Notes under the pieces: model-generated | The model's input: the letters and a program-made list of their open reading frames with translations, nothing else | The model's database searches: none | What the model was told of the DNA's origin: nothing | Source: Promethearchaeota archaeon | GTDB lineage: Archaea; Asgardarchaeota; Lokiarchaeia; Sigyniarchaeales; SOKP01 | Assembly: GCA_019058295.1 (NCBI GenBank) | Contig: JAHPZI010000018.1 | Coordinates: 73,578 to 95,647, forward strand | Direction of reading: 5' to 3' | Length of the DNA: 22,070 nt | Translations under genes and position numbers: made by a program | Shown: piece by piece, positions 679 through 22,070 of the stretch | Numbering within the stretch: the first letter of the stretch is position 1 | How the letters are laid out: each line of letters begins with the position of its first letter

Positions 679-1662
679 ATGAATGATAATATTTTGAAGC
701 TCACAATTCCTAAAGGTAGTTTACAGGAAGTAGTCACTTCTTTCTTTGAGAGAGCTGGACTTAAATTAAACTTTGCCTCAAGTCGAGATTATCGTCCTTC
801 TATCGGTGATCCAGAGGTTTATATAAAATTATTGAGACCACAAGAAATTCCTAATTATTTAATAGGGGAAGATGAGTTTGATTTAGGGATTTCAGGTATA
901 GATTGGGTAAAAGAGACAAATGCGGATGTTGAGGTTATTTTAAATCTTGAAATTGGTATGGTAAGAATTGTTTTTTGCGTTCCTACTATCTGGGATAATA
1001 TTAATTCACTTGACGATGTTCTTAAAAAATTTAATGACGATAATAAGGTTTTAAGAATTTCAACTGAGTATTTGACATTATCATTGGATTATATAAAAAA
1101 AAATAAAACGTATATCAAATTATACGGTAATAAAGCTCCATTAGTCATTACACCATGGAAAACCTGGGGCGAAAATGAGAAAGTTAAAATATTCTTATCG
1201 TTTGGAGCAACTGAAGCAAAGCCCCCTGAGGAGGTAGACGCTATAATAGATAATACCGAAACGGGATCAACGTTGAGGGCAAATAATTTAAAAATTGTTG
1301 AAGTTTTAGACACTTCCACAGCAGTTTTAATCGCTAATAAATATGCCTTAAAGGATGAATGGAAGAAAGAAAAGATAAAGGATTTAAAGGTTTTGCTAAT
1401 GGGTGTAATGGAAGCTTCTAAGAAACTTCATATTTTCGTAAATGTTCATGAAAAGAATCTTAATCAATTATTGGCAAGTTTGCCGGCTTTAAAACGCCCT
1501 ACAATCTCAAAATTAGCTGGAGAGAATTCTGAAGGTTGGTATGCTATAAATACAATCATTAAAAAAGAGGAATTTTTAAGTTTGGTTCCAATATTAAGGA
1601 AACTAACGCAAGGTCTCGTAGTACACGAACCTCGGCAAATACTTCCATTTGAGAAAATTTAA
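679..1662 (+). CDS. hisG: ATP phosphoribosyltransferase, long form with C-terminal regulatory domain
   Basis: IPKGSL, LRPQEIP, DLGISGIDW, GATE, DAIIDNTETGSTLRANNL motifs; C-terminal LPALKRPTIS domain; adjacent to hisD and hisC. Confidence 0.96.
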   Translation: MNDNILKLTIPKGSLQEVVTSFFERAGLKLNFASSRDYRPSIGDPEVYIKLLRPQEIPNYLIGEDEFDLGISGIDWVKETNADVEVILNLEIGMVRIVFCVPTIWDNINSLDDVLKKFNDDNKVLRISTEYLTLSLDYIKKNKTYIKLYGNKAPLVITPWKTWGENEKVKIFLSFGATEAKPPEEVDAIIDNTETGSTLRANNLKIVEVLDTSTAVLIANKYALKDEWKKEKIKDLKVLLMGVMEASKKLHIFVNVHEKNLNQLLASLPALKRPTISKLAGENSEGWYAINTIIKKEEFLSLVPILRKLTQGLVVHEPRQILPFEKI

Positions 1663-1671
1663 GAAATTTGG

Positions 1672-2979
1672 ATGGTTTATATGGTTTCTTTAAAAGTTAT
1701 TAACTCAGATCAAATAACTGAGGATAATATCTCCTCTTATATTCCAAGAGCGGACATTCTATTAGATGAGATAAAAGATGAAGTTCTAAAGATTATTGAC
1801 GATTTAGTTAAAGGCGGAGACGATGATGTGGTTAAAAAAAATCAGCCTTGGGTAGATGGTGTTTTCAAAAAACAAGATATTGAAGCTTCTAAAGATGAAA
1901 TCAATAAAGCCTATAAAAAAGTCGATAAAGAATTATTAAATGCAATTAAATATGCAAAGAAAAATCTAATTAAATTCCATAAAGCTCAATTAAGAAAGGA
2001 ATGGTCAAAAGAGATTGAAAAGGGTGTTAAAGCAGGTCAAATTTTTCGACCAATTGAGTCAGTAGGAATATATATTCCTGGTGGACAGGCAATATATGTG
2101 AGTACGGTATTAATGGCTGCAACTCCTGCTCATATAGCAGGCGTAAAAGAGATTATTATATGCACACCACCACAAGTAGGTAGAAGATTCGCACCTGAGA
2201 TTCTTGTAGCAGCGAATGAATTTGGAATTGAAAAAATATATAATGTTGGCGGTGCAACGGCCATTGCAGCTATGGCATTTGGAACAGAAACAATACCTAA
2301 GGTTCAAAAAATCGTGGGACCTGGTAATAGATATGTAAATGCAGCAAAACAGTTATTATCTAATGTTGTGGCGATCGATAATCCAGCAGGTCCCTCAGAA
2401 GTTTTAATAATTGCTGACAAAGCTGCTAATTTCAGATACGTTATATTGGATCTTATTTCTCAAGTTGAACACGCACCTGATAATGTAGGAATATTGATTT
2501 CAGATTCACAAGAATTAATTGAAAAAGTGAATAATAATATAGATTCGGTTGTAAAAAATTCTAAAAGAGAGAAAATTATTGAATATGCTTTAAAAAAGCA
2601 TTCAATAATTATTAAAGCTGAGGATATTGAAGATTGTATAAGGATCTCGAATTTAATAGCTCCAGAACATTTAGAAATATTAATTGAAAATCCTCAAGGT
2701 GTATTAGAAAAAATAAATAATGCAGGAGCAATATTTTTGGGACCATACTCTCCTGTTCCGTTAGGAGATTATAATGCTGGGACAAATCACATTTTACCTA
2801 CTGGAGGGAACGCCAAAACATATTCTGGATTAAATATATATGACTTTTTAAAGATTATGGACGTTTTAGAATGTGATAAAGAGGGATTAAGATTATTAAG
2901 TAGCTCTGCCTCAACTATAGCTGAATTTGAAGGCTTATTTGCCCATAAAAAATCTATTGAAGAAAGATTAAAAGAATAA
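1672..2979 (+). CDS. hisD: Histidinol dehydrogenase
   Basis: GIYIPGG, GPGNRYVNAAK, PAGPSE, SQVEH, APEHLE, GDYNAGTNHILPT, EGLFAH motifs. The start could instead be the ATG at 1681. Confidence 0.96.
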   Translation: MVYMVSLKVINSDQITEDNISSYIPRADILLDEIKDEVLKIIDDLVKGGDDDVVKKNQPWVDGVFKKQDIEASKDEINKAYKKVDKELLNAIKYAKKNLIKFHKAQLRKEWSKEIEKGVKAGQIFRPIESVGIYIPGGQAIYVSTVLMAATPAHIAGVKEIIICTPPQVGRRFAPEILVAANEFGIEKIYNVGGATAIAAMAFGTETIPKVQKIVGPGNRYVNAAKQLLSNVVAIDNPAGPSEVLIIADKAANFRYVILDLISQVEHAPDNVGILISDSQELIEKVNNNIDSVVKNSKREKIIEYALKKHSIIIKAEDIEDCIRISNLIAPEHLEILIENPQGVLEKINNAGAIFLGPYSPVPLGDYNAGTNHILPTGGNAKTYSGLNIYDFLKIMDVLECDKEGLRLLSSSASTIAEFEGLFAHKKSIEERLKE

Positions 2980-3065
2980 AATTAATTTATATTAAGTATA
3001 TAATTAATAATAACTTTATATAGAAATTTAGTTATTTTAATCCATTTTAAAATTAGGTAATATGT

Positions 3066-4154
3066 ATGGATCTTAGTGACGTTTTAAGAGAGGTACTTAA
3101 GAAATTCTCTCCTTATGAACCTGGAGAGCAACCAATTGGAGATGGCTGGATCAAGTTAAATACTAATGAGAATGCCTACCCTCCAATTCCAGAAGTAATA
3201 GAAGAAATAAAAAATGCTATTAATGATAAACTTAGATTATATCCTGATCCTTTGGCGCTCGAAGTCCGTAAAGCAGTGCTGAATCAACTATTAAGAGATG
3301 AAGACACTCTAACCAATAGAAATAATGTTTTTATTGGAAATGGTGCGGACGAAATTTTAGACGTAATTTTTAAAGTTTTTGTTGATCCTGGTGATGAGGT
3401 TGTATTTTTTTACCCCTCTTACGGAATGTATAAGGTGCTTGCGACTCTTTATAATGCAAAGATCAATGAAATTAACTTAAATGATGATTTTTCTATACCT
3501 GATACTGCTTTTTCAGCAAAGGGTAAATTAATGTTTATTAACTCCCCTAATAATCCAAATGGAAAATCAGTTGGGAATGCAACAATTTTAAAAATATGCA
3601 GTAGTTTTCCTGGAATTGTCGTTGTTGATGAAGCATATGCTGATTTCTCAGAACAAACTAGTTTATCTCTACTAAAAAAAGTAAAAAATTTAATCGTGGT
3701 ACGAACCTTGTCTAAAGGTTTCTCTTTAGCCTCATTACGGGCTGGATTTGCTTTAGCAGACGCCAGTATAATTAAAGAAATGAACAATGTGAAATTACCG
3801 TTCAATACAACTTATATAACTCAAATTGCCGCTTTGGCTTGTATAAAAAATAGAGTAAAAATTTTCGAACAAAACAAAAAAATTATCGAAGAGAGAAACA
3901 GATTAACGCAAGAATTAAATTCTTTTGAGGGAGTTTCCGTGTTACCCTCAGATGCTAATTTTATTCTTGTCAAATTTAATGACAAGTCCCAAGCATTGAA
4001 GTTTTTATGGGATTTTAAAGATAAGCATAAAATTTTAATAAGACACTTCAGTAAACCAAGACTTTATCCATATATAAGAATCACTATAGGAACAGAAGAA
4101 CAGAACAATAAACTATTAGAAGTTTTTAAATTACTTGCTGTCAAATATCTCTAA
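3066..4154 (+). CDS. hisC: Histidinol-phosphate aminotransferase
   Basis: KLNTNEN, YPDP, GNGADE, SPNNPNG, DEAY, RTLSK (PLP lysine) motifs; follows hisGD. Confidence 0.94.
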   Translation: MDLSDVLREVLKKFSPYEPGEQPIGDGWIKLNTNENAYPPIPEVIEEIKNAINDKLRLYPDPLALEVRKAVLNQLLRDEDTLTNRNNVFIGNGADEILDVIFKVFVDPGDEVVFFYPSYGMYKVLATLYNAKINEINLNDDFSIPDTAFSAKGKLMFINSPNNPNGKSVGNATILKICSSFPGIVVVDEAYADFSEQTSLSLLKKVKNLIVVRTLSKGFSLASLRAGFALADASIIKEMNNVKLPFNTTYITQIAALACIKNRVKIFEQNKKIIEERNRLTQELNSFEGVSVLPSDANFILVKFNDKSQALKFLWDFKDKHKILIRHFSKPRLYPYIRITIGTEEQNNKLLEVFKLLAVKYL

Positions 4155-4379: not shown

Positions 4380-6872
4380 TCAATTTATTTTGCTGCATTT
4401 TTTGATTAGAATTACGGATACAATGGCAAAAATGCTGACTAAAATTAGTATATCATAACTTAAAATTATAGGCTCTCCATCGCCATCATCATCGTCATCA
4501 TCATCATCATCATCATCACCAATATTTCCTGAATCGATTTGGACTAATACATCTAGGCAATTTGAGGTTTTATTACCACATTTATTAAATGCTACTACTA
4601 TATAATAATATCTACCATTTGTTAATCCAATGATATTATAGGTTCGATTTGTATTGCCTTCCACAATTAGATTTGCTATAGTTGGATCATTGATAAATGA
4701 AGTATCCCAATATAGAGAATAATTATTCGTATATTTCGAAACGTCCCAATTTAAATTAAAATTGCCATCATTGTCAGGACTCCCTGCAGTAGAATACAGC
4801 ATAAAAAATCCAGGGGGATATAATGTAACATTTATTTCTAAACAATTTGAGCTCATATTTCCGTATTCATTGAATGCGACTACGATATAATAATAAGTAC
4901 CATTTGTTAGACTAGTGATATTATAGGTTCGATTTGTGTTTCCTGCCACAATAAGAATTGCTGTAGTTGGATCATTGATAAATGAAGTATCCCTATATAG
5001 AGAATAATTATCCGCGTATTTCGAAATATTCCAATTTAATTGAAATGAACCATCTAAATCTTCTGGTACGTTAGCAGTTGAAGTTAAATTAATATCACCA
5101 GGGGGAAGAATAGCTTGAACACTTTTACAGTTAGAAATCGCACTTTCCCCTAAAGCACCTTTCGCAACAACAACATAGTAAAAAGTTCCTGCGCTTGTAA
5201 GAGTGTCAGTATATTCATTTTGAGTGATTGTAGCAACTGGAGTTAAACCTCCCAACGTAGATATAAAAGATGTATTCCTATATACATAATATTCAATAGC
5301 ACAATCTTCTTTAGACCAATTCAAGTTTATATCACCATCATAATCAATAGAGGGTGAAATAGCATTTAACACAGGAGCTTTGGGGATTTTTGCATACTGA
5401 GCACGAATGTTAGTATTTGTAAGCCCATCTCTTTCATCATGCCAAACAACGAAAGCAGTACCAGGTATACTCGGATTTCCTTCACACATTTCAAAAGAAA
5501 AGATTCCATTTAAAATATTTCTTGTTATTAAAGATACTCCATTTACTTTAAGTTGAGCATCTCCAGTAGAATTAATAATTTGTACACGTGGAAGGTTAAA
5601 ATCATTATCAATCCAGCCGATAATTCCTCCCCCGTTTCCATCACTAACAATACGAACTTTATCAACATCTTCAAATTTTGTGCTTATTGCTATTCCATTA
5701 GCATCCCATTGTCCATCTCCCGAAGAATTAATACGTTGAATATACAAATCTATATTCGAGCTTGCCTCATCTCTACTATCCTCCCATGCTAGGATTGCGC
5801 CGTTTGCCCCATCGGTAATAATATCAATATATTCCTGTTTATCAGGGGCATTACAAATCACAGTACCATTTTTATCCCAATAAATATCACCTGTTTTATT
5901 AATCCTTTGAGCATAAATATCCCTATTAAGGAATATTCTCGTATCTTCCCATGCTATTATTGCTCCGCCTATAGCATCTGAAATTATTTTAGGATTATAT
6001 TGTCCATAATCAGTATTACATATTGCCGTTCCATTATCATCCCATATACAATCACCTGTTTTATTAATCCTTTGAGCATATATATCCTCATATGATCCTC
6101 TCTCATCTTCCCATGCTATAATAGCCCCTCCATCTCCATCGCTACATAAATCAAAATAATCTTGGTCCTCCACGTATGTGCAAATTTTTGTACCATTATT
6201 ATCCCAATAAAGATCTCCTGACGCATTAATTCTTTGAGCATATATATCCCTATCGGATCCTCTCAGATCATTCCATGCTATTATAGCCCCTCCATAACCA
6301 TCCGGGCAAATTTGAGGATAGAATTGATCTCCAGTAGCAGAAGAAATCAAAACACCATCAGCAGTCCATTGTAAATCTCCTGATGCATTAATTCTTTGAG
6401 CATATATATCCCAATCCGATCCTCCCCAACCCCACCAAGTAATAATTGCTCCTCCCACTCCATCAGATATCAATTTTGGATCATATTGACCAATCAAAAA
6501 ATCACTTTTAATTGGAATTCCATCATTAATCCAATATCTTTCACCAGATGAATTAATACGCTGCGCGTAAATATCACCATCCGGCCCTAATCTATAATCT
6601 TCCCAAACAATTATAGCTCCACCGATTCCATCGCTAATGATTTCTGGATATTCATTATCATAACTTGTAGTACAAATATCCAATCCATCAGCCAGCCAAT
6701 TACTTGATGTTGGAGGAGTTTTAATAATATTATCATATTTATTTTCATTATCAATAGATTTTTCTTCTACAATAGAATCTGATTCTTGATTCATATTGAT
6801 TAATGAATTGAAAAGAACTATCTGAAAGAAAATGATAACAATAAGAATTTTTAGTTTTAATTTTTTTGTCAT
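4380..6872 (-). CDS. Secreted, C-terminally anchored surface glycoprotein: about 8 propeller-like repeats, 3 FN3-like domains, poly-Asp linker, Loki-CTERM-like tail
   Basis: N-terminal basic + hydrophobic signal segment; repeats of DGxGGAIIAWxDxR...DIYAQRINxxG; FN3-like LNW...Y.LYR...GxYYYIVVAFN units; D11 tract, then ILSYD + hydrophobic helix + KK; many NxS/T sequons. Confidence 0.85.
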   Translation of the reverse strand: MTKKLKLKILIVIIFFQIVLFNSLINMNQESDSIVEEKSIDNENKYDNIIKTPPTSSNWLADGLDICTTSYDNEYPEIISDGIGGAIIVWEDYRLGPDGDIYAQRINSSGERYWINDGIPIKSDFLIGQYDPKLISDGVGGAIITWWGWGGSDWDIYAQRINASGDLQWTADGVLISSATGDQFYPQICPDGYGGAIIAWNDLRGSDRDIYAQRINASGDLYWDNNGTKICTYVEDQDYFDLCSDGDGGAIIAWEDERGSYEDIYAQRINKTGDCIWDDNGTAICNTDYGQYNPKIISDAIGGAIIAWEDTRIFLNRDIYAQRINKTGDIYWDKNGTVICNAPDKQEYIDIITDGANGAILAWEDSRDEASSNIDLYIQRINSSGDGQWDANGIAISTKFEDVDKVRIVSDGNGGGIIGWIDNDFNLPRVQIINSTGDAQLKVNGVSLITRNILNGIFSFEMCEGNPSIPGTAFVVWHDERDGLTNTNIRAQYAKIPKAPVLNAISPSIDYDGDINLNWSKEDCAIEYYVYRNTSFISTLGGLTPVATITQNEYTDTLTSAGTFYYVVVAKGALGESAISNCKSVQAILPPGDINLTSTANVPEDLDGSFQLNWNISKYADNYSLYRDTSFINDPTTAILIVAGNTNRTYNITSLTNGTYYYIVVAFNEYGNMSSNCLEINVTLYPPGFFMLYSTAGSPDNDGNFNLNWDVSKYTNNYSLYWDTSFINDPTIANLIVEGNTNRTYNIIGLTNGRYYYIVVAFNKCGNKTSNCLDVLVQIDSGNIGDDDDDDDDDDDGDGEPIILSYDILILVSIFAIVSVILIKKCSKIN
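4485..4517 (-). repeat. GAY trinucleotide tract encoding 11 consecutive Asp
   Basis: (ATC/GTC)x11 on the + strand, in frame just before the C-terminal anchor. Confidence 0.95.
4545..5105 (-). repeat. Intragenic 285-bp duplication (two FN3-like domains)
   Basis: GTTGGATCATTGATAAATGAAGTATCCC occurs at 4681 and 4966 (offset 285 bp = 95 aa) with similar flanks. Outer boundaries are approximate. Confidence 0.85.
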
Positions 6873-9797: not shown

Positions 9798-11171
9798 TTA
9801 AACGGATGTAAATTCCGTCTTTTTCACGCCAAATAATCCTAAGGATACACCAAGTTCATGATGGTCTTTGGCATAGGTCTTTACTGGAATTCCCTTTAAA
9901 GCTGCGTTTATAGCTTGCCGGAATGCCTTAGCTCCAGCAATGGGCCCTTCTGGATGGGCATGAATACCTCCCCCACTACCAATCATAATATTTGGTCCTA
10001 AATCTTTAATACACTTTTCCACAATTCCTGGAGTAATACCTCCAGAAGGCATCGGCAAAGTTCTTTTAATGTGTGGAGCATTTCCCCATGGTAATACCAT
10101 CTGTCGTGCCACTTCCATAAATTTTTCCCCTAATGTTGGAGCCTTACCATATGGCGCCGGAAATACTATCGTATCACATCCAGACAATCTTCCAAACTTT
10201 CCAAGAATTAAAGGACTGGAGACCCCACTAAATGGATCTTGAAAAAGTGCTCCAGCAAAATCCATATGTCCTAATAATGGCACCTTAACAGATGGATCTT
10301 CTGCCAATTTTCGCATTGCAGAATATCCAACTGATATATGGTTTACCATAAAAGCATTCGCTCCATGCTCCTGAAGAATATCTGCCCATTCAAACATCTT
10401 ATCTACTCTATCTGTGATATTTATGGTATATAAAGTCTTTTCTCCTTTTTCTGAGTCCGCTTTATCTAAAGCCTCCATAAATGCTACGCATCGATCGACA
10501 ATCGGATTGAAATCGACATCGGCAATTAATTCATCATCTTTAATTATATCGCATCCTCCAACAGCTGCTTCATAGGCTAATTTTGCTCCAATTTTAGGAT
10601 CTGTATATACGCAGGGTTTGATCATATTATTCAGCAAGGGTCTTTCTGGAACTCCTAAGAGCTTCCTTATTCCTATATCACCAAATTTAGGACCTTTAAA
10701 TTCAGCAAGGAAGCTTTTTGGAAATCGTACATCTACCATTTTTAATGGTCCCGCCATGCTAATGTTCCCAAATATTGTTGTAAACAGCATAGGGAACTGA
10801 GGTCTAAAATTAAGCGGATACGCAATTTGGACAAAATATTTTCGAAACTTCTTTTCAAGCGTGCTAACATTCAATACTTGATCTATCTGTTCATATTCAA
10901 AATCCGGAAATGGATAAACACCTATAACTTTAGCCACATGCTTTCTTCTTTGCTCAGGTGTTTCTTCTGGTACTGGCACGAAAGTACCAGTAGATTGTTC
11001 AATACATACTACTTGAGCCATATAAAAAGCATCTAAACTCTTAGGAAGTACCATATTATAACTTGCAACGATATGAGTTTCATAATCAATATCCTCGGCA
11101 ATAGCATTCGGTCTTGATCGAAAATCTTGGTCAAACTCGTCAGACATTTTTTCCCAATTATGTTCAGACAT
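9798..11171 (-). CDS. RuBisCO-like protein (form IV, RLP)
   Basis: IEQSTGT, FGNIS, GPKFG, GGCDIIKDDE, MPSGG, GGGIHAHPEG. IKPC, GHMDFAG and FPAPYGK replace the carboxylase KPK, HRAxH and H..GK residues. Confidence 0.9.
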   Translation of the reverse strand: MSEHNWEKMSDEFDQDFRSRPNAIAEDIDYETHIVASYNMVLPKSLDAFYMAQVVCIEQSTGTFVPVPEETPEQRRKHVAKVIGVYPFPDFEYEQIDQVLNVSTLEKKFRKYFVQIAYPLNFRPQFPMLFTTIFGNISMAGPLKMVDVRFPKSFLAEFKGPKFGDIGIRKLLGVPERPLLNNMIKPCVYTDPKIGAKLAYEAAVGGCDIIKDDELIADVDFNPIVDRCVAFMEALDKADSEKGEKTLYTINITDRVDKMFEWADILQEHGANAFMVNHISVGYSAMRKLAEDPSVKVPLLGHMDFAGALFQDPFSGVSSPLILGKFGRLSGCDTIVFPAPYGKAPTLGEKFMEVARQMVLPWGNAPHIKRTLPMPSGGITPGIVEKCIKDLGPNIMIGSGGGIHAHPEGPIAGAKAFRQAINAALKGIPVKTYAKDHHELGVSLGLFGVKKTEFTSV

Positions 11172-12092: not shown

Positions 12093-12395
12093 TTGTCAGA
12101 GAAAGAGGATAAGTTACTAGTAAGAAAAGCAACAATAAATTTAAGGAGAAAATACGGAAGAACAAAGCAAATTAATATTTTAGAGAGAGATGCCTTCATT
12201 CCAAACAAAATCGAAAAAGAAATAAGAGAAACTTTCCTAAAAAAGAAAACAATCACAGCCACAGAAATCGCTTTAAGATACGATATTAGGGTGTCTACAG
12301 CAAAATTATTATTAAACCAATATGAAGAAGAAGGATTAATAAAACTTTTAGATCCTTCTTTAACATTGAAAATTTATGTCCCTATTTCTAAGTAA
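12093..12395 (+). CDS. rps25e: Small subunit ribosomal protein eS25
   Basis: 100-aa basic protein; KTITATEIALRYDIRVSTAKLLLNQYEEEGLIKLL...LKIY fits the S25e winged-helix pattern. Confidence 0.85.
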   Translation: MSEKEDKLLVRKATINLRRKYGRTKQINILERDAFIPNKIEKEIRETFLKKKTITATEIALRYDIRVSTAKLLLNQYEEEGLIKLLDPSLTLKIYVPISK

Positions 12396-12636: not shown

Positions 12637-13572
12637 TTATTGGATAAGTTGAAGAATTAAATTTTCCATTTGAGGCTTAGCGGCTTCTATTTTATCTAAA
12701 ATATTGATTGTTTTTTCTAAATTATCTTCTTCCTCCTCTATAATAAATAACAAATAAAACTCTAATCCTCCAAAATTCATTACTTCAACTACACCACTAA
12801 ACCGTTGACCGCTTTCAAACTTTTCTGAAAATTCGAATAAATCACGATTTTCAGCTATAATTCTTTTTTGAACCGTAATGTACATATCATAAATTTTCAA
12901 TTTCTCTTGTAGATGGAGATGAGGTCTATAATATTCACCAATAGTAATTCCCCTGGAATCAAATAAAGCTATTAATATGGAATTATAATTTTTACTTATT
13001 TCAGCAAATAAATGAGAAATCATCTCTATTTTATCAAATAATAATGATAACCCGCTCGAAAATGCGTCCATTACCGATTTAATGTCGTATATACTCGTTT
13101 CGAAAAAAAACATGTCAAACGCTTGGGAATACTTGGCTAAATTTTGTTTTAAAGTCAAGATCTTTTTATTAATCTCTTTTTCTTTTAGAATCTGTGGATC
13201 AAATTTATGAAAAAGGACAGCAATACGTGGATACATCTGCTCTTCTTTAAAAAATATTAATATTTGATCTAAATAATCTAATGATTCAATATAGCGCTTA
13301 TAATCCTGTGCATCAATTACATAATAAATTAAATCCATGCCACCTAAAAATTTTCCTGGTTTTTTTAAATAATCCTCTCTATAGAATTCTTGCCCTCCAA
13401 AATCCATTCTAATAAATTCGATACCTAGAAATTTGAAAGTATCTCTATCTACTCTTCGGGTTGGTATTAATTTAGCAATTTCATCTTCGAACCCAAATCG
13501 CTCTGTAATTGCTGTAATGATGCTTGTTTTTCCTGCGTTGTCTAATCCGAGAAATCCAATTTTTTGAACCAT
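12637..13572 (-). CDS. Arf/Rag-like small GTPase with C-terminal roadblock/longin-like domain
   Basis: G1 GLDNAGKTS, G2 PT, G3 DFGGQ, G4 HKFD, G5 TSI; C-terminal about 130 aa with LIALFDSRGITIGEYY...FYLLFII. Confidence 0.9.
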   Translation of the reverse strand: MVQKIGFLGLDNAGKTSIITAITERFGFEDEIAKLIPTRRVDRDTFKFLGIEFIRMDFGGQEFYREDYLKKPGKFLGGMDLIYYVIDAQDYKRYIESLDYLDQILIFFKEEQMYPRIAVLFHKFDPQILKEKEINKKILTLKQNLAKYSQAFDMFFFETSIYDIKSVMDAFSSGLSLLFDKIEMISHLFAEISKNYNSILIALFDSRGITIGEYYRPHLHLQEKLKIYDMYITVQKRIIAENRDLFEFSEKFESGQRFSGVVEVMNFGGLEFYLLFIIEEEEDNLEKTINILDKIEAAKPQMENLILQLIQ

Positions 13573-13739: not shown

Positions 13740-14021
13740 TTATCCACCCGCTAATGGAACGCTCAAATGAATGTTGTCTCCATCCTTTAGGGCAGTTTTA
13801 TAATTATTCAAATATTTAATATTCCTCCCGTTTACTAAGATAAGAATCTGTTTGTCTAATTTTTTTTTACTTTTGTTTAGCAATTGAACATCTAATTTAT
13901 GGCTGTGATCTTTTATAAATTTAGAAATTACTTCTTCAATAGTACTTCCATTATATTCTATAGATTTCTCTTTAATCTGTAAGTAAAATATGTTTAATAA
14001 ATTTAAATTTACTTTTGCCAT
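13740..14021 (-). CDS. MoaD/ThiS/SAMP/Urm1-family ubiquitin-like sulfur carrier
   Basis: 93 aa; ILILVNGRNI, LKDGDNIHLSVPLAGG with C-terminal di-glycine. Confidence 0.92.
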   Translation of the reverse strand: MAKVNLNLLNIFYLQIKEKSIEYNGSTIEEVISKFIKDHSHKLDVQLLNKSKKKLDKQILILVNGRNIKYLNNYKTALKDGDNIHLSVPLAGG

Positions 14022-14144
14022 ATTTTTTCAATAATAATAAAAATTATTTCCATTTTAAGGTTAATTCTAATAAAAAAAAAAGAAATTCATTTTGATTAAA
14101 AAAATATTTATTTTATTTTGTCTAATCACAATATTGAATTATAT

Positions 14145-15368
14145 TCAAAAAATTTTAAATTCTTCAATATTATTTAAGCTTTCCAGGATTAAATCCTTTA
14201 AATTTAACGATTTATATAAAGTTTTTAGCTCTTCGATGGTTATTTCTTGATTTTTAGGTTTAAATTGACAATAATCTATATTGACTAGATCTCTTGATAT
14301 TTTGTTTATCATTTCTTCAACATTATTTGACTCTAAACCTATAGTTGGTGTGAAAACAGGATATTTAGAAAATAAATAATTGAGGGCAATTGATTCTAAA
14401 TCCACTTCATCTGGACATAAAAAAGTATTATTCAAACTAACGCCGTCAGATATCGCCCTTATTCTATCAAAACCTTCGATATCAAATTCTTTTAGCATTA
14501 TAGATTGAGATTCAAATCTGATAAGTCTGCAGATTGCGCATATATATTTCTTCTCTTTTAAAATATTTTCTATATTTTCTATTATTTTTATTAGATTAAC
14601 CTTTCTGATTATAAAATTACGTTTTGGAGAATAATTTGCCAATTCATTCCAATTAGATAATTGTGATTCTAAAAAATACTCGTCATTTGTCAATTGAAAT
14701 AAGATTGGATAAATTTCGCATCCCCTTCTCATCAATAAGAATCCAGCTAATAAATCGCTTAATCTTCCAATGTCAGGAACCAAAATCTTTTTATTTTTCT
14801 CAATCGGTAACCCGCCCCATTCAGTCTTTATTATCTCAGTATATATATAAGAGAATTCACCTCGAACTTCAATATATATCTTTTTCATTGGATTTGACAA
14901 ATTTACTTTTAAATTAAGGTTTTTAAAATTATCCATAATTGCCTGTCCTCCTTTTACAGCAATATCATGTGAAGTATATTCATGTTTTCCAGATCTTTTA
15001 ACTCTAAGAGCAAAAGTATCTCCTTTATGTAGAATCTTTTCTCCTACTAAAATTAATTTTTCGACAATATTTTTAATTCTATTTGAAGTTCTTAACGCAG
15101 GGTTAAATGAGTAAATCCCAAAAACTTTTTTTAACACTTTTATTGCGTTTGAAATCTCCTTATTATTGAAAAAGAAAAGAATTCTTGCCGAATCTTTAGT
15201 TAATTGAAATTTATAAAATGGAATTCCAGATCGAGCTAAACTGATTTTGATATTTGAAATCAGAATTTTTAGCATCCTAATTTTTACTTTCCTTGATTTA
15301 AGCCAAATCTCTGGAGATGGATTTATCTTGATTAAATTATACAATTCTAAAGGAGGTTGATTTTTCAC
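14145..15368 (-). CDS. ThiI-like THUMP-domain protein with degenerate PP-loop
   Basis: EIWLKS N-terminus; THUMP (TFALRVKRSGKH...VNLSNP...IEVR); GGLP; LLMRRGCEI; CAIC and late DYC. The SGGxDS PP-loop is replaced by DIGRLSD. Confidence 0.85.
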   Translation of the reverse strand: MKNQPPLELYNLIKINPSPEIWLKSRKVKIRMLKILISNIKISLARSGIPFYKFQLTKDSARILFFFNNKEISNAIKVLKKVFGIYSFNPALRTSNRIKNIVEKLILVGEKILHKGDTFALRVKRSGKHEYTSHDIAVKGGQAIMDNFKNLNLKVNLSNPMKKIYIEVRGEFSYIYTEIIKTEWGGLPIEKNKKILVPDIGRLSDLLAGFLLMRRGCEIYPILFQLTNDEYFLESQLSNWNELANYSPKRNFIIRKVNLIKIIENIENILKEKKYICAICRLIRFESQSIMLKEFDIEGFDRIRAISDGVSLNNTFLCPDEVDLESIALNYLFSKYPVFTPTIGLESNNVEEMINKISRDLVNIDYCQFKPKNQEITIEELKTLYKSLNLKDLILESLNNIEEFKIF

Positions 15369-15411: not shown

Positions 15412-16992
15412 TCAAGTTAATATAGTAGTTTGATATCTGCCAATTACTTTTTTTTTACCCGTTCTTAAGTTATGCTCTGTTAAAATTATTAGACCATCTT
15501 TATATATATCAATTTCAATAAAATTTTCATCAAAATGAATACCTTGAAGATTTCCTCCGTTTGAAAATATTGAATTATCTATTTTTACGTTAAACGATAC
15601 GCTTGGTGAGCTATTTAGAACAAGATCTATCTGAGAGCGAGCAAATTGAGATAGAGCATCTCCTGAATCAATTAACTCTGTCTTCCAAACACTTAATGGT
15701 GTCGGTATTAAATTATGATAGCTGCATACTCCAAATATTTTTTGATGACTAAGATTTAACACTTTTTCCATGAATTTATGTAATTTTTTACGACCAATAT
15801 AACCTTCTTTTGAGTCTGGTCGTGTTGAATTAATTCCTTGAAAATATATTTTTTCCTTTTCGTATAATGGATCTAAGGAACCAATATAATGTTCCCAATA
15901 TTCCCAAGCTGGAGGTTTTGAATCTGAATAACCGGGAACAGCTATATAGGGGTGTTGAATTTCTGCTAATTTTTCTTCAGCTAGTTTAAATTCTTCTTTA
16001 TAGCTATGTTTTGTTAGGTTTCCAGTATGAACAACTAAATCTATGTCTCTAATTTTGTTAATCTCATCAATTGTATCATTAAAATTTGAATTTGGTTGTT
16101 CCGAAATCTCAGTATTACATATTTGAATAAATTTGCAAAATGGTTTTTCGTTTATTTTAATTTCCCGCGGAACATAATACTTAATATTACGATGAATCTC
16201 TTTTTTAGGAATTTCTTCTAGAATTGGTAATAGTTTAAAATTAAGTGTATTTCCACTAATGTCAATAACGCTATATGTAAAAAGTTCTCTGTATCTTGTT
16301 TTATTACAACAAAATGTACCTGCGTTATAAATATATAAATCTTTATTAGTGCTATTCAAAGTATATATATTTGAAATATGTCTATGACCATTTAAAACTA
16401 AATCAGTATTTGTATCAATTAACATTTGAAGCATATTTCCCGAATCATCTATGGCAGATCTCTCTTTTCCCGTATTTGGAATCGGAATAAGTTGATGATG
16501 GAAACAGACGATTTTTAACTTCTTTTCTCTTTCAGGCTGCAATAGTCGTTTTTTTACCGCATTAATCGGACCATGGTGAATAACGCCTCCAGGTAAATCT
16601 GGTTTAGTGCTATCTATTCCTATTATATAATCATTCGAGTCTTCGAACTCAAAATGCCTCTCTCCAATGAGTTCTTCAAATAATAAATATCCTACATTTT
16701 TAGCATCATGATTTCCAATTAAGTAATATATTGGAGCCTTTGATATAGGATTAAATTTCTTCATTTGTTCTATCGCATATTCATAATCCAACAAAGTTCC
16801 AGATTGAGTGATATCTCCTAAATGAAGAAAGAGAGTGACATTTTTAATTTTATTAATTTTTTTAATTCCCTTGTCGAATGCTTTTATATTAAATTCAGTA
16901 CCCGACGGAGTCATATGTGTATCTGAAATAATTACAATTCTTTTCTTGGTATTATGATTATTTTTCATTTTAACTGTCTGATCTAATGCCAT
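15412..16992 (-). CDS. Tandem calcineurin-like metallophosphoesterase (Icc/CpdA-like); second domain degenerate
   Basis: Domain 1: SDTH, GDIT, GNHD, FHH, GHRH. Domain 2 equivalents: CNTE, GNLT, GYSD, YHN, NSSP. Confidence 0.88.
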   Translation of the reverse strand: MALDQTVKMKNNHNTKKRIVIISDTHMTPSGTEFNIKAFDKGIKKINKIKNVTLFLHLGDITQSGTLLDYEYAIEQMKKFNPISKAPIYYLIGNHDAKNVGYLLFEELIGERHFEFEDSNDYIIGIDSTKPDLPGGVIHHGPINAVKKRLLQPEREKKLKIVCFHHQLIPIPNTGKERSAIDDSGNMLQMLIDTNTDLVLNGHRHISNIYTLNSTNKDLYIYNAGTFCCNKTRYRELFTYSVIDISGNTLNFKLLPILEEIPKKEIHRNIKYYVPREIKINEKPFCKFIQICNTEISEQPNSNFNDTIDEINKIRDIDLVVHTGNLTKHSYKEEFKLAEEKLAEIQHPYIAVPGYSDSKPPAWEYWEHYIGSLDPLYEKEKIYFQGINSTRPDSKEGYIGRKKLHKFMEKVLNLSHQKIFGVCSYHNLIPTPLSVWKTELIDSGDALSQFARSQIDLVLNSSPSVSFNVKIDNSIFSNGGNLQGIHFDENFIEIDIYKDGLIILTEHNLRTGKKKVIGRYQTTILT

Positions 16993-17154: not shown

Positions 17155-18285
17155 TTATTCTTCAGCAAGCGCTTTTTTTTCCTTCTTTTGTTGCTTCTTC
17201 ATCTCTTTATAAGAATAATAAGCCTCTTCTAGGACATTTAAGAATTCAATTAAAACTCTGTCTGCTTTTGACTTAACATCATATTCTTTAATAATTGTAT
17301 TTAAGATATATTTTGGAAAGAACGTGGAAATTTCAAAATCAGAGACCAAAGCATAATATTCAATACCTTTAGATTTTTGAAAAACTACAATCATTTGATT
17401 CTCCCATAGTGCTTTTAAAGCTTCATCTAAGTCATAGACACCTTTCTTTTTTAATTTTTCAAGTTCATTTTTAGTAGGGAACATGGTTCTTAATAATTTT
17501 AAGCATTCATAAACCTGAGGATCCATCACTAACTTAATTAGTTCCAAATTGTCTTCTTTTGATGGCTTATAATCTTGAAAAAAATTTTTAATTGAAATTT
17601 CATATTCATTTACAAATTTCTCTGGCAAGCCTTTCTCTACAGGATTTTTCAACAAATTAATAGGGGGTCTTCTAGTCATTAATATATCATTTAAGAAGAA
17701 AAGTAATTCCGATGGCATACCTTTAACCGATGCTTCTTTAATAATATCTTTCCTAATTAAATCAACCATAAGAGCATCTAAGTCTACGAAACCGTGTTTA
17801 TATTGATCTCTTAACCAAATCATAAGTTCTGATTTTGAAACAACTCCTTCTTCTCTAAGTCTTTCTATAATCATCCTTTTGATTTCATCTTGATAAGTAA
17901 CAGCAAGCTGCTGCTCTCGATTCAAGCTTGGAAAGATTGAAATACGTTGAAAGAGAGAAGGAATCATAGGCACAAATTCTTTATTCTCAGTGTTTTGTAA
18001 TATAACTCTCGAAATATCAGATAATCCTGCTTCATATGCATCTGGATCGTCGTCTAAGCTTAAGAGTAAGACAACATAATAACGTTTGTCAGGTCCTGAA
18101 TAATAAGACATGATATTCAAAGACCCTACCATTATACTGATAATTCCCGCTTCACTGCTATACTCATGCGTACTGTAGATCTGCATCAAAGTACTGTCCA
18201 TAACATTAATTTCTTCTGGATATTTTGCCTCAATCTTAGTTCCAACACGATCGTCCCATTTCATAACTAATAATCCTACAGGCAT
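17155..18285 (-). CDS. Longin (uDENN/NPR2-like) domain protein with two winged-helix-like modules
   Basis: Starts GLLVMKWDDRVGTKIEAKYPEE (hhhhF/W-D-x-x-x-G-x-x-h-x-x-x-YP longin start). Two later helix-helix-helix-wing segments (IIERLREEGVVSKSEL...LIRKDII; CLKLLR...KNEL...LWENQMI). AAGGAG lies upstream. Confidence 0.7.
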   Translation of the reverse strand: MPVGLLVMKWDDRVGTKIEAKYPEEINVMDSTLMQIYSTHEYSSEAGIISIMVGSLNIMSYYSGPDKRYYVVLLLSLDDDPDAYEAGLSDISRVILQNTENKEFVPMIPSLFQRISIFPSLNREQQLAVTYQDEIKRMIIERLREEGVVSKSELMIWLRDQYKHGFVDLDALMVDLIRKDIIKEASVKGMPSELLFFLNDILMTRRPPINLLKNPVEKGLPEKFVNEYEISIKNFFQDYKPSKEDNLELIKLVMDPQVYECLKLLRTMFPTKNELEKLKKKGVYDLDEALKALWENQMIVVFQKSKGIEYYALVSDFEISTFFPKYILNTIIKEYDVKSKADRVLIEFLNVLEEAYYSYKEMKKQQKKEKKALAEE

Positions 18286-18314: not shown

Positions 18315-21300
18315 TTATTCCTTAGGACGTTTCTGTTTTTTAAATTTATAAGAATTTATTTTGGCCTTCTTAGCTTTGACTTTTGCAAGATTTTTCTCAC
18401 TAAATTTTACTCCTAAGACTTTATTTAGCGGAATTCCGATTTTATCCCATTGTTTCCTATACTTTTTGAAGAATGCTTCATCTCTGTGAGGATATACATA
18501 ATGTACTGGCATCGTATGGCCTTTCTTAATGACGCTTTTTAAAGCTTTCATTTTTTTCACGAATTTGGGCGTTTTTATAATTCTTAGCTGTCGATAGCCT
18601 AATATGCTACCAACGGCAGTAGCGATTGGAATTACTGTCGCGAGAATTATTAGCAATCTGATATCTTCTATTGGTCTAACCGAGTTTATATTAATTTCCT
18701 TGCGTTTGAATTCAAATTCATCATCGGCATAAACTGTAATAACAAATTTAAAAGAACCCTCAGGCACCTCTTCCAATTTAACTTCATATATTCCATCTCC
18801 TTTATCGTCCATCTCTCCGTCACCATGCTCCCAAGTATATTCTACCCTCGCACCTTCTATAACTTCGCCGAAATCTAAATCATTTAATTGAACTCTAATT
18901 GTAACATCTTCTCCGGGTTTTATGTTTATCTCGTCATTCTTGTACTTCAAAAGTTCGACTTCACATTGAATTCTTGCAACATTTATTCTAATAGTAACTG
19001 ATTTGGATTGGTAATTTGTCTTGCCAGCAAAAATGATTAAAAATCGGATTCCAATATCTAGATCTACGGTATTTATCACAATCTCATATTGAGAAACTTT
19101 AGTAAAGTTTCTGGGGCTAAAACCCTCTCCCTCAATAGTCACCGTTGATTCATTAATTATTTTTCCTAAATCAATATCAGAATAATTAACTTCAATTAAT
19201 AACCTTTCTCCATAAGGAAGTGTCAGTGATGGATCAAATGTTAGATCCTTTTCTACAGCCCCACCTTTATATTTTGCTGTTATTTTTATCTCTGTTAGTC
19301 TATTAATTATTTCAACTATGATGTCTATATCTTGAGGTTGATAGCCAAATTTTTGTGCTACAACTTTTAAGAAATTAACTCCAGCACCTAGCTTAGGATC
19401 ATCAGAATCTATAGTTATGGAATAATTAACACCATTAAAGTCTAATGTTTCATTAAAGCCTTCCCCTATTAATCTTAAATTTGCATCCAAAAGGGATTTT
19501 TTCGTGTCGTTATCAAAAAAGGTTATATTGATTTGGAAATAATCGTTCACTACAACTTTAATGGATGGTTTGCTAGTTTTATCCTCTAGTGGTGATGAAA
19601 CGGAGTTCGATAAAAATAATTTATAATCTGTTTCTATGTCGATTATTACGATTGAAAAAGATATTGATTGCGAAGTATGATTATCAGCTTGAGCAAAGAC
19701 AGCTAGAAAATTTGTAATTCCGGCTAAATGCGAGGTATTTAACGTGTATTCATAATACACAGGGCCTTCTGTTAAACCTATATTTTCAAGACCTCCTCCA
19801 GTGAGATTTATGGTTGCTCCACTAATTTTAGAATTTAAAGCTGAATCGTTATAAAACATGACTATATTTACAGTCGCGTTTGTATACACATTGATGACTG
19901 CGTTTTCAACCCTTTCCGTTCCCGCTATAAATAATTGAGCATCTGAATCCGCCTTAGTTACATCAACTCTAATTACTACTGATTGAACTTCAAAATTATT
20001 TCTCACAGCTAAGATAGTTAAATAATGAATTCCTATGCCTAAACTTTTTGTATTTATTGTTAAATTGTATTTTTGTCCATTTTCTTCAAGCTCATCTGAA
20101 AAACCCCCTCCTAATATCGTTACCGTAGCTCCTCCAATATGAATCTCGGTTGGGTCTATTCGATACGTAATAGAAACATTCAATATTTCATTCCATTTCA
20201 ATATGATGGATTTATCCACATCTGCAGTTCTATCTACTCCGTTTAAGGAAAGATTTAGAAAACTTTCTTTTGGTGTTATCTCTACTGTTAGAATTAATGA
20301 TTGGGGTTGATAATTAGCTTTCTGGGCTAAAATGTTTATGAAATTTACTCCTGGATTTAAATCATTCGTATTTAAAGTTAAATTGTAGTGTTTAAATGGA
20401 ACATTTTCAAGAATTTCAAAAACTTTACTGGGAATTGTTCCGTTTACCGAAGCCCCAGCAATGTGATAGTAGGGTGGTAATAACTCATTATAAATCACGG
20501 TAATATTTATTGTTTCATTGATGCTTCGTTTAATTGAAGGTGTGGCCGTTAAGTCTACTCCTTCGATAAATAATGTAAAATTAGTCAGAATTTCTTCTAT
20601 AGAAATTATGAGCAATATGGATTGAGGTTCATAATTATCTGCTTGGGCATAAATGGTTAAAAAATTAATTCCTTGATTTAAATCCGTCGTATTAATAAGT
20701 ACTGAGTAATTATTATTGTGAGCATTAAAATCTAAAAGATCAGAAATTCCAGAACCGTTTATAGATACTAAAGCACCCGTAATGGGATCATGAGGAGATA
20801 ATTCTTCCTTATATGCAAGTGAAATATTTAATAATACATTTACAGTAAGCGTAATATCTTCGTTCCCTGTATAATTTACCCCGTTTAAGAATAAATTATA
20901 AAGCGATCCTTTTTCAGCAACATAGACGGTTATGTCCTCAGAACTCAGAGTGTAATTATCTTGTTTAGCATTTATTGTTAAAATTCTAACGCCAAGACTA
21001 AGATTCTCAGCAGGCATTAGAATAGTATATCGCTGACCATACCGAGTTAAAGATTTTGCCTCAGCTAAACCCCTAAGCTCCACTGTTGCGTTATCAAGAG
21101 CGCTATCGGTTTCAAAGTCTCTGTACGAAACTGTTATATTTAAAGTCTCTCCTATTTTAGTTTGATAAATTTCTGGAACATTTGAACCATTAATAGTAGT
21201 TATTAAATAAGTTTCTCTGTTGGTAACAGTTATAATAATAGTTTCTGAAGCGGAACTGTAGTTTATCTTAGTGGCAAGAATCGTTAAATAGTGAACTCCT

Positions 21301-22070
21301 AAGCCTAATTCATCGGAATTAAGGACCGCCGTGTAGTTTTGACCGTCAAAATTTAAAGGCTTTGCCGGTATTCCCGAGCCTGCTATCGATACGGTGGCAC
21401 CCGTTATGAAGGCTCCTGTATTCGTATCGTTATAAGCGATGCTGACGTTAAAAGCTTCGTTCCACGCAATATCGTACGTTTTTTCGGTCGTTCGATCTTC
21501 GAGATTTATGAAAATATCATCAATTAATGTAGATCTATCAGTAACAGTTATAATAATATTCACTGAAGCAGAAGTGTAATTCACCTGATTGGCTAGAATT
21601 GTTAAATAGTGGACTCCCACGCCTAATTCATCGGAATTAAGGACCACCGTGTAATTTTGACCGTCAAAATTTAAAGGCTTTTCCGGCAATCCCGAGCCTG
21701 CTATTGTAACAGTAGCTCCTGTGATGAAGGTTCCTGTATTCGTATCGTTATATGCGACGCTGACGTTAAAAGCTTCTTTCCACGCAATTTCATACGTTTT
21801 TTCGCTCGTTCGGTCTTGGAAATTTATGAAAATATTATCAATTAAAGTAGATCTATCAGTAACAGTTATAATAATATTCACTGAAGCAGAAGTGTAATTC
21901 ACCTGATTGGCTAGAATTGTTAAATAGTGGACTCCCACGCCTAATTCATCGGAATTAAGGACCACCGTGTAATTTTGACCGTCATAATTTAAAGGCTTTG
22001 CCGGTAATCCCGAGCCTGCTATTGTAACAGTGGCTCCTGTGATGAAGGTTCCTGTATTCGTATCGTTATA
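18315..22070 (-). CDS. Giant single-pass surface glycoprotein of tandem ~105-aa Ig-like repeats; 5' end beyond the window
   Basis: The frame stays open to 22070 (YNDTNTGTFITGATVTIAG...), so the 21965 start is internal. About 10-11 repeats with I.GATV.I.G and LG.G..FLTI.A...NY motifs; TM helix 18594-18656; basic cytoplasmic tail of about 92 aa; many NxS/T sequons. Confidence 0.9.
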   Translation of the reverse strand, partial: YNDTNTGTFITGATVTIAGSGLPAKPLNYDGQNYTVVLNSDELGVGVHYLTILANQVNYTSASVNIIITVTDRSTLIDNIFINFQDRTSEKTYEIAWKEAFNVSVAYNDTNTGTFITGATVTIAGSGLPEKPLNFDGQNYTVVLNSDELGVGVHYLTILANQVNYTSASVNIIITVTDRSTLIDDIFINLEDRTTEKTYDIAWNEAFNVSIAYNDTNTGAFITGATVSIAGSGIPAKPLNFDGQNYTAVLNSDELGLGVHYLTILATKINYSSASETIIITVTNRETYLITTINGSNVPEIYQTKIGETLNITVSYRDFETDSALDNATVELRGLAEAKSLTRYGQRYTILMPAENLSLGVRILTINAKQDNYTLSSEDITVYVAEKGSLYNLFLNGVNYTGNEDITLTVNVLLNISLAYKEELSPHDPITGALVSINGSGISDLLDFNAHNNNYSVLINTTDLNQGINFLTIYAQADNYEPQSILLIISIEEILTNFTLFIEGVDLTATPSIKRSINETINITVIYNELLPPYYHIAGASVNGTIPSKVFEILENVPFKHYNLTLNTNDLNPGVNFINILAQKANYQPQSLILTVEITPKESFLNLSLNGVDRTADVDKSIILKWNEILNVSITYRIDPTEIHIGGATVTILGGGFSDELEENGQKYNLTINTKSLGIGIHYLTILAVRNNFEVQSVVIRVDVTKADSDAQLFIAGTERVENAVINVYTNATVNIVMFYNDSALNSKISGATINLTGGGLENIGLTEGPVYYEYTLNTSHLAGITNFLAVFAQADNHTSQSISFSIVIIDIETDYKLFLSNSVSSPLEDKTSKPSIKVVVNDYFQINITFFDNDTKKSLLDANLRLIGEGFNETLDFNGVNYSITIDSDDPKLGAGVNFLKVVAQKFGYQPQDIDIIVEIINRLTEIKITAKYKGGAVEKDLTFDPSLTLPYGERLLIEVNYSDIDLGKIINESTVTIEGEGFSPRNFTKVSQYEIVINTVDLDIGIRFLIIFAGKTNYQSKSVTIRINVARIQCEVELLKYKNDEINIKPGEDVTIRVQLNDLDFGEVIEGARVEYTWEHGDGEMDDKGDGIYEVKLEEVPEGSFKFVITVYADDEFEFKRKEININSVRPIEDIRLLIILATVIPIATAVGSILGYRQLRIIKTPKFVKKMKALKSVIKKGHTMPVHYVYPHRDEAFFKKYRKQWDKIGIPLNKVLGVKFSEKNLAKVKAKKAKINSYKFKKQKRPKE
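21223..22070 (-). repeat. 318-bp near-identical tandem repeats (106 aa), 2 full units + 1 partial
   Basis: GTAACAGTTATAATAATA at 21223, 21541 and 21859 (period 318). Confidence 0.95.

Follow-up and report, generated by a model that had tools for sequence, protein, structure and literature searches.

ThiI, the enzyme behind tRNA 4-thiouridine (s4U), has so far been treated as a homodimeric, single-gene enzyme. In the Thermotoga maritima ThiI-RNA structure, one subunit's ferredoxin-like domain at the N-terminus (NFLD) and its THUMP domain grasp the acceptor stem and CCA end and deliver U8 to the PPase site of its partner, and most of the dimer interface comes from the PPase domains (PMC4041423). 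Archaeal TtuI has a [4Fe-4S] cluster with described ligands (PMC9825150), and ThiI PP-loop domains are described as always THUMP-fused, DUF814 fusions excepted (PMC4075521). The 'ThiI-like protein' PH1313 of Pyrococcus horikoshii has had a structure since 2005 (1VBK), yet a 2023 review lists its activity as unconfirmed (PMC9957541). The window considered here, a stretch of 22,070 nucleotides from contig JAHPZI010000018.1 of the Promethearchaeota assembly GCA_019058295.1, encodes on its reverse strand (14145..15368) a 407-residue NFLD-THUMP-PPase-like protein without a PP-loop, called pseudo-ThiI below. Comparative genomics and one structure prediction suggest that it is probably the subunit that binds tRNA, without catalytic activity of its own, in a ThiI/TtuI-type tRNA 4-thiouridine(8) synthetase split between two genes.

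The reading frame of pseudo-ThiI begins with GTG and continues without interruption over all 407 residues, and its assignment draws on the frame itself, Pfam, NCBIfam, an AlphaFold2 model and Foldseek. Pfam places a ferredoxin-like ThiI_fer domain at residues 20-88 (15105..15311, reverse strand; PF22025, 35.9 bits) and a THUMP RNA-binding domain at residues 108-177 (14838..15047, reverse strand; PF02926, 45.9 bits). The remainder, residues 190-407 (14148..14801, reverse strand), is a PPase-like domain lacking the ATP-site motifs, characterized by alignment, the ratio of nonsynonymous to synonymous substitution rates (dN/dS) and a predicted interface. It matches the Pfam ThiI PP-loop domain weakly (30.5 bits, residues 207-372), and the protein reaches 104 bits on TIGR00342, the NCBIfam ThiI equivalog, far under the cut-off of 264.5. 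The AlphaFold2 model has a pLDDT of 93.1 and a pTM of 0.91, and Foldseek relates it to Bacillus anthracis ThiI (2C5S, TM 0.87), the T. maritima ThiI-RNA complex (4KR7, 0.83) and PH1313 (1VBK, 0.82).

Alignment with canonical archaeal ThiI and stand-alone ThiI domains shows that each ATP-site motif has been exchanged. DIGRLSD (residues 199-205; 14754..14774, reverse strand) occupies the place of the PP-loop SGGxDS and appears across the orthologues as D-[IV]-G-R-x-x-D. The GE..GQ.ASQT motif has become the degenerate loop DGVSLNNTFLCPDE, with a four-residue insert bearing C318, and RPLIG..K reads FTPTIGLE (FTPxIG in the alignment); DGVSLNNTFLCP and TPTIGLES are both present in the translation. 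The cysteines follow a different course. CAIC (C277/C280; 14529..14540, reverse strand) corresponds to the Fe-S-site CxxC of archaeal ThiI and aligns with the CxxC of both canonical and stand-alone forms, and C367 (14268..14270, reverse strand), in DYC, is the counterpart of the third Fe-S ligand, so that three cysteines match the TtuI ligand positions. The additional C318 (14415..14417, reverse strand), in FLCPDE, lies within the insert that replaces GQ.ASQT. Because the three defining motifs and the curated cut-off all fail, pseudo-ThiI is, judged from its sequence, not a ThiI in the enzymatic sense. A preliminary description of this locus had proposed an uninterrupted, full-length ThiI architecture with altered ATP-site motifs, a kept THUMP domain, CAIC and DYC, and one more cysteine in FLCPDE; the 407-residue frame with its ThiI_fer, THUMP and PPase-like fold bears this out, as do the position of DIGRLSD and all three replacements in the alignment.

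The altered motifs belong to a family. Identities of 50-100% to pseudo-ThiI, together with an intact frame, are found in more than 120 proteins of roughly 407 residues; they come from metagenome-assembled genomes (MAGs) labelled Promethearchaeota, Lokiarchaeota, Hod-, Thor-, Hermod- and Odinarchaeota, and are annotated as 'THUMP domain-containing protein' or 'ThiI'. A 50%-identity library holds three full-length pseudo-ThiI representatives, after which scores drop to those of other ThiI-like proteins. Across 73 aligned orthologues (42-90% identity), the PP-loop is consistently lost, D205, C277, C280, C318, C367, P337, F339 and T340 are invariant, and D199, G201 and R202 are conserved in at least 90%. 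Since the replacement residues are invariant or nearly so, the PP-loop has been replaced by another conserved motif and not eroded. Measured against same-genus and same-family orthologues, dN/dS is 0.14-0.25 overall, 0.09-0.17 for the NFLD-THUMP part (residues 1-189) and 0.15-0.45 for the dead PPase-like domain, values that indicate purifying selection.

The loss of every ATP-site motif is what a decaying pseudogene, or local motif loss, would also produce. That explanation is refuted by the frame kept in more than 120 relatives, the family-wide invariance of the replacement motifs, the low overall dN/dS and the confidently predicted fold, which leave it a negligible chance. The preliminary description had foreseen that close orthologues with an intact SGGxDS would reduce the matter to local decay; the loss turns out to be family-wide. 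The evidence supports a conserved, selected, non-catalytic ThiI paralogue that retains its RNA-binding domains and cysteines.

A candidate partner is encoded elsewhere in the relatives' genomes. The loci read contain a stand-alone ThiI PP-loop domain of 211-219 residues without THUMP, termed mini-ThiI, with stop codons directly upstream of its frame. In a profile search of 40 relatives, nearly all have a strong PF02568 match (145-173 bits; about 165 bits for mini-ThiI) in an open frame of roughly 210-235 residues. The motifs lost from pseudo-ThiI are conserved here: SGGxDS (S-x-G-x-D-S across the family), CxxC, GDILGEQASQT, RPLIG..K and the late cysteine, with the S-G-DS core, both CxxC cysteines, the late cysteine and most other motif residues invariant. 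The two proteins are thus complementary, one having RNA-binding domains without an ATP site and the other an ATP and Fe-S site without an RNA-binding domain. No full-length ThiI was seen in the genomes of the window's own family, f1. NCBI labels mini-ThiI a 'hypothetical protein'; NF006222 (PRK08349) was rejected as a name, its 160-174 bits falling below a 251-bit cut-off that no control genome passes.

The mini-ThiI neighbourhood is itself conserved: a PAC2 gene, a similarly oriented CxxCxxCC (PF03692) gene abutting or overlapping the next frame, mini-ThiI, and a SWIM-like gene. The gene for the CxxCxxCC protein (198-205 residues, with a putative Zn/Fe-chelating domain) directly precedes mini-ThiI, often with an overlap of a few bases (for example L007:2079-2678 and L008:2076-2681), in 13 of 13 f1 loci checked and in one locus of the sister family f2, and it is retained after mini-ThiI deletion (L086). 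Some mini-ThiI loci are irregular. In two same-genus genomes, G006 (L058:1990-2140) and G002 (L059:1470-1622), the frame has an intact PP-loop, ISLLSGGLDSP, but the stretch from the preceding stop codon to this motif contains no ATG, GTG or TTG; translation from the first canonical start codon would omit the PP-loop, which leaves either a non-canonical start or N-terminally disabled copies. In G020 (C252:13006-13497; L037:1495-2550), the ThiI PP-loop match lies in a 358-residue frame at 105 bits and pseudo-ThiI has only 351 residues, which may represent a variant or a damaged pair.

The distribution of the two genes ties them together. Phyletic comparison covered a 41-genome set of relatives and a 201-genome phylum sample, with 53 genomes in family f1. 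Both genes occur in 40 of these, neither in nine and only one in four, so that mini-ThiI accompanies 40 of the 42 copies of pseudo-ThiI counted by genome. The four discordant genomes are 79-92% complete: pseudo-ThiI stands alone in the window's own genome (79% complete) and in G009 (81%), and mini-ThiI alone in G001 (92%) and G223 (81%). In the latter two, the pseudo-ThiI locus is probably unassembled, since the adjoining gene for a SAMP-like protein, treated below, was not found either. Eight of the nine genomes with neither gene form one subclade of genus g11 and are 92-100% complete, and a Pfam re-check of five of these eight, with all candidates scored, found no mini-ThiI. The loci of one g11 genome, G085, show both removals: pseudo-ThiI has been cleanly excised, leaving a metallophosphoesterase (MPE) gene, the SAMP-like gene and a Rag-like GTPase gene, and mini-ThiI has been cleanly excised, leaving SWIM, CxxCxxCC and PAC2. 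Two unlinked genes have therefore been excised in one lineage with their neighbours kept.

Structure prediction is compatible with direct contact. The window's pseudo-ThiI was modelled with the mini-ThiI of the same-genus genome G007, using custom alignments. The ipSAE values are 0.88, 0.88 and 0.89 against 0.00 for the best control, a mark attained by 58 of 80 solved complexes and by 2 of 110 mismatched pairs; resemblance to ThiI homodimers of known structure may account for this pass. Contact agreement is at least 83%, and partner pLDDT at least 83. The predicted interface joins residues 211-217 and 324-346 of pseudo-ThiI, including the invariant FTPxIG, to residues 28-32 and 122-156 of mini-ThiI, including RPLIG, so that equivalent elements meet on both chains. 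The prediction would in this way cover FTPxIG, whose invariance is otherwise unexplained.

Taken together, these features suggest how a split enzyme might work. Through its NFLD and THUMP domains, pseudo-ThiI would grip the tRNA at the acceptor stem and the CCA end, and its PPase-like domain would bind no ATP and serve mainly as the dimerisation partner of the roughly 215-residue mini-ThiI. The active site of mini-ThiI would adenylate and sulfurate U8 of the bound tRNA, in the trans manner of canonical ThiI homodimers. A heterodimer of a dead THUMP subunit and mini-ThiI would retain exactly one functional trans arrangement. A fully ligated Fe-S cluster, or a metal, is probably bound by the four invariant cysteines of pseudo-ThiI and would serve a structural or relay function; an Fe-S cluster would be the most economical choice, because three of them match the archaeal TtuI [4Fe-4S] ligands and the fourth would complete the ligation.

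Several points weigh against this reading. The joint loss of the two genes, specific as it is, is essentially one phylogenetic event and not a statistic. The heterodimer prediction may reflect memory of the solved ThiI homodimers (2C5S, 4KR6), which makes it compatible and not decisive. The invariant DxGRxxD and four-cysteine pocket lies outside the predicted interface, so the pseudo-subunit probably does more than scaffold and also binds something. In these organisms, s4U is itself a putative product. Finally, no mini-ThiI turned up in the genome that contains the window (3.2 Mb, 30 contigs, 79% complete). Searches there with PF02568, the same-genus mini-ThiI protein, the A2 profile and NF006222 yielded no second intact ThiI, the matches being pseudo-ThiI and a weak one in a 519-residue frame.

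An assembly or binning gap is the likelier cause of this absence. The CxxCxxCC and SWIM neighbours of mini-ThiI are missing from the genome too, so that the whole neighbourhood was not found, and a mini-ThiI locus is covered by Logan contigs from two samples of one study, X1, which is the likely source sample, and X3. A 9.3-kb mini-ThiI contig at depth 20 begins within the gene and continues at 92% nucleotide identity to the G007 locus; a 1.7-kb contig from X3 spans PAC2, CxxCxxCC and mini-ThiI. That identity fits the divergence expected of the window organism from G007 (dS 0.16), although the assignment of the contigs to this genome is uncertain. The preliminary description had looked for the partner in a second, intact ThiI, and on this point it has to be amended: the candidate is not a full-length ThiI but a THUMP-less PP-loop protein of the relatives, encoded elsewhere. 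Its notion of a non-catalytic RNA-binding subunit in an Ncs6/Ncs2-style pairing holds up as the best-supported model, given the co-presence, the co-loss and the complementary domains.

The same evidence bears on an alternative in which pseudo-ThiI is an independent, homodimeric PH1313-like tRNA- or RNA-binding protein, acting as a chaperone, sensor or Fe-S redox protein without mini-ThiI, or in the same pathway without contact. PH1313 crystallised alone as a dimer, which also counts against the split enzyme; THUMP proteins with a dead PP-loop abound among archaeal representatives, and a ThiI gene is often absent from their vicinity; and the invariant pocket is not part of the predicted interface. 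This alternative leaves aside, however, the joint presence and joint clean loss of the two genes, the absence of any RNA-binding domain in mini-ThiI itself and the inclusion of the invariant FTPxIG in the interface, and it appears unlikely.

Directly downstream of pseudo-ThiI lies a gene for a 93-residue SAMP/MoaD-family beta-grasp protein that ends in LAGG (13740..14021, reverse strand), identified by Pfam ThiS and synteny. It passes Pfam ThiS (PF02597; 30.1 bits against a cut-off of 22.5) and stays under the curated cut-offs of MoaD_arch (46.9 against 49.5), Pfam Urm1 (20.6 against 21.8) and NCBIfam SAMP1 (37.8 against 60), and its orthologues end in [AS]GG or GGG, in keeping with its preliminary description as a GG-terminated, sulfur-carrier-like product. 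Upstream by 43 nucleotides is a calcineurin-like MPE of 526 residues (15412..16992, reverse strand; PF00149, 80.9 bits), and beyond the SAMP gene a Gtr1/RagA-like small GTPase (12637..13572, reverse strand; PF04670, 77.8 bits). The order MPE, pseudo-ThiI, SAMP with terminal GG, and Rag-like GTPase is conserved among 23 f1 loci with orthologues 48-100% identical: SAMP directly follows pseudo-ThiI in 20 of the 23, and MPE directly precedes it in 19. In sister family f2, no SAMP adjoins the gene.

This arrangement raises the question of a SAMP-coupled module, in which the remodelled pocket of pseudo-ThiI would receive or dock a SAMP thiocarboxylate within an Urm1-like relay. Apart from the adjacency in 20 of 23 loci, four genes each of the ThiS and ThiF/E1 families are present in the window's genome, TtuA/TtuB and NcsA/SAMP2 offer earlier examples of ubiquitin-like (Ubl) thiocarboxylate donors to Fe-S PP-loop enzymes, and archaeal E1-ThiI gene links have been noted earlier (PMC2948915; PMC5372739). 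Yet either side can occur without the other. Both ThiI genes are missing from the g11 genomes G085 and G204, which keep a SAMP orthologue (58-59% identical); in G085 it is intact, GG-ended and set between the same neighbours. Conversely, the four g4 genomes sampled (all of that genus in the set, 89-100% complete) keep both ThiI genes, but a homologue of this SAMP is absent from them at E <= 1e-3; both g4 loci that were read place the Rag gene directly after pseudo-ThiI. Because of this two-way dissociation, SAMP is not an obligate partner or a defining part of the pseudo-ThiI system, and with no adjacency in f2 either, a SAMP-coupled module is quite improbable. On the same grounds, SAMP is not supported as a defining component of the sulfur relay in the preliminary description, and only the adjacency within one family stands. 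By analogy with TtuB and SAMP2, it could still be a sulfur donor where it is present.

The MPE gene invites a comparable idea, namely that pseudo-ThiI is a tRNA-targeting adaptor for the adjoining phosphoesterase, for example in RNA-end processing or repair. The upstream position of the MPE gene in 19 of 23 loci speaks for it, as does a distant PH1313-like clade in which all five loci have a Metallophos gene after the one for the dead-THUMP protein. The two MPE sets are barely similar, however (best BLASTP E 0.006), MPE is retained in G085 after pseudo-ThiI deletion, and the idea gives no reason for the joint loss with mini-ThiI; it has very little to recommend it. Orthology between the window MPE and the Metallophos genes beside PH1313-like genes was considered and rejected, the similarity being only marginal. 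The conserved MPE/SAMP/Rag block looks like inherited gene order. The block stays together even where pseudo-ThiI is deleted.

Further genes of the window complete the setting. Ribosomal protein S25e (12093-12395, forward strand) and two proteins without a Pfam match, of 376 residues (17155-18285, reverse strand) and 1216 residues (18315-21965, reverse strand), form with the Gtr1/RagA-like GTPase the typical Asgard 'eukaryotic signature' surroundings. Farther away lie a RuBisCO large-subunit homologue of 457 residues (9798-11171, reverse strand), an 830-residue open reading frame without a Pfam match (4380-6872, reverse strand) and a hisG-hisD-aminotransferase cluster (679-4154, forward strand). 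For Asgard biology, the case is a caution against taking a SAMP and Rag-GTPase neighbourhood as a eukaryote-like Urm1 or nutrient-sensing module.

The combination of a stand-alone mini-ThiI with a dead-PP-loop THUMP protein extends beyond family f1. Seven Asgard families with a stand-alone mini-ThiI (f1, f2, f7, f15, f18, f24 and f29) each have a separate dead-PP-loop THUMP protein of 311-480 residues, with dead forms that include SCDELD, RPNVNS, RGSVED and EGKKED and with varying cysteine retention; in Asgard families with a ThiI of about 400 residues, the THUMP and PP-loop profiles match one frame. Outside Asgard archaea, short PH1313-like dead-THUMP proteins occur in Thermoplasmatota MAGs. 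On an unrelated archaeal metagenomic contig, a 297-residue dead-THUMP gene is preceded, two genes upstream and in the same orientation, by a 208-residue ThiI PP-loop gene whose SGGIDS is intact, and the gene neighbourhoods of four other short dead-THUMP representatives hold no ThiI gene. An NFLD-THUMP tree supports f1 (SH-aLRT 97), f1 with f2 (92), and f7, f24 and f29 with one representative (87); it resolves neither the deep nodes nor a single PH1313 clade, and single and several origins of the dead forms are indistinguishable in it. Longer, fused pseudo-ThiI forms (714-2035 residues) were not found at E <= 1e-20, which is weak evidence. More tentatively, with chances a little short of even, the pattern may reflect a widespread archaeal two-subunit s4U8 synthetase, in which mini-ThiI performs the chemistry and a PH1313-type dead paralogue recognises the tRNA in trans and, in this Lokiarchaeal family, carries a fully cysteine-ligated Fe-S cluster.

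Other dead-THUMP proteins vary in form. In sister family f2, which includes two single-contig genomes, the NFLD-THUMP proteins have 456-480 residues (L046:1456-2832, L047:1018-2388, L042:1450-2892), with a C-terminal domain that lacks the PP-loop and all four cysteines, lineage-specific insertions and extensions, and no adjoining SAMP gene. The distant clade of short PH1313-like proteins (291-300 residues) has a Metallophos gene of 408-432 residues after the THUMP gene in each of its five loci (L101:4346-7387; L102, L108, L110, L112), some with a HAD hydrolase or a 106-residue open reading frame in between. By a simple pattern test, the 280-420-residue matches to pseudo-ThiI among representatives P0135-P0270 mostly lack S-x-G-x-[DN]-S, and PP-loop-less ThiI-like THUMP proteins seem very common in archaeal metagenomes.

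A literature search returned no paper joining Asgard, tRNA modification and ThiI, and none for the phrases 'split ThiI' or 'ThiI paralog'. If the split enzyme is real, it would explain both orphan groups, the PP-loop-less PH1313-like proteins and the THUMP-less mini-ThiI. It would also offer a clean natural case of subfunctionalisation of a homodimer working in trans. In the more tentative, widespread form, it would be a prokaryotic parallel to Ncs6/Ncs2, and 1VBK, so far an orphan structure, would gain a function, as would many proteins annotated as 'THUMP domain-containing protein'. Annotations could be corrected for mini-ThiI, now 'hypothetical protein', and for pseudo-ThiI, now 'THUMP domain-containing protein' or 'ThiI'.

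Structurally, pseudo-ThiI resembles the archaeal [4Fe-4S] ThiI/TtuI enzymes (Methanococcus maripaludis MMP1354 and Pyrococcus furiosus PF1288; structures 2C5S and 4KR6) in its three-domain fold (TM 0.80-0.87), its NFLD and THUMP domains, its CxxC and late cysteine positions and, as predicted, its PPase-PPase dimer surface. Unlike them, it lacks the PP-loop, GE..GQ.ASQT and RPL..K, carries an extra fourth cysteine and has its putative catalytic domain on a separate, THUMP-less gene. Its best PDB sequence match is PH1313 (1VBK, E 4e-20), which likewise combines NFLD-THUMP with a PPase-like domain devoid of a PP-loop (LHDELS in the alignment). PH1313 has 307 residues and a truncated C-terminal domain, in a group of about 290-310 residues, whereas pseudo-ThiI, closest to that group, keeps the full C-terminal domain and four invariant cysteines over 407 residues. 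The proposed pairing of an active subunit with an inactive paralogue would share its logic with the eukaryotic U34 thiolase Ncs6/Ncs2 (Ctu1/Ctu2) and with ADAT2/ADAT3. Ncs6/Ncs2 belongs to another PP-loop subfamily, makes s2 at U34 and not s4 at U8, and depends on Urm1, whereas the Ubl neighbour of pseudo-ThiI is dispensable; in the pseudo-ThiI/mini-ThiI pair, moreover, the RNA-binding domains lie only on the inactive subunit. Like mini-ThiI in the proposed pair, the ThiI+DUF814 proteins (Burroughs and Aravind 2014, PMC4075521) have a THUMP-less ThiI-type PP-loop with RNA binding from another module. There the module is fused and unrelated (DUF814), whereas pseudo-ThiI is a separate polypeptide and itself a dead ThiI.

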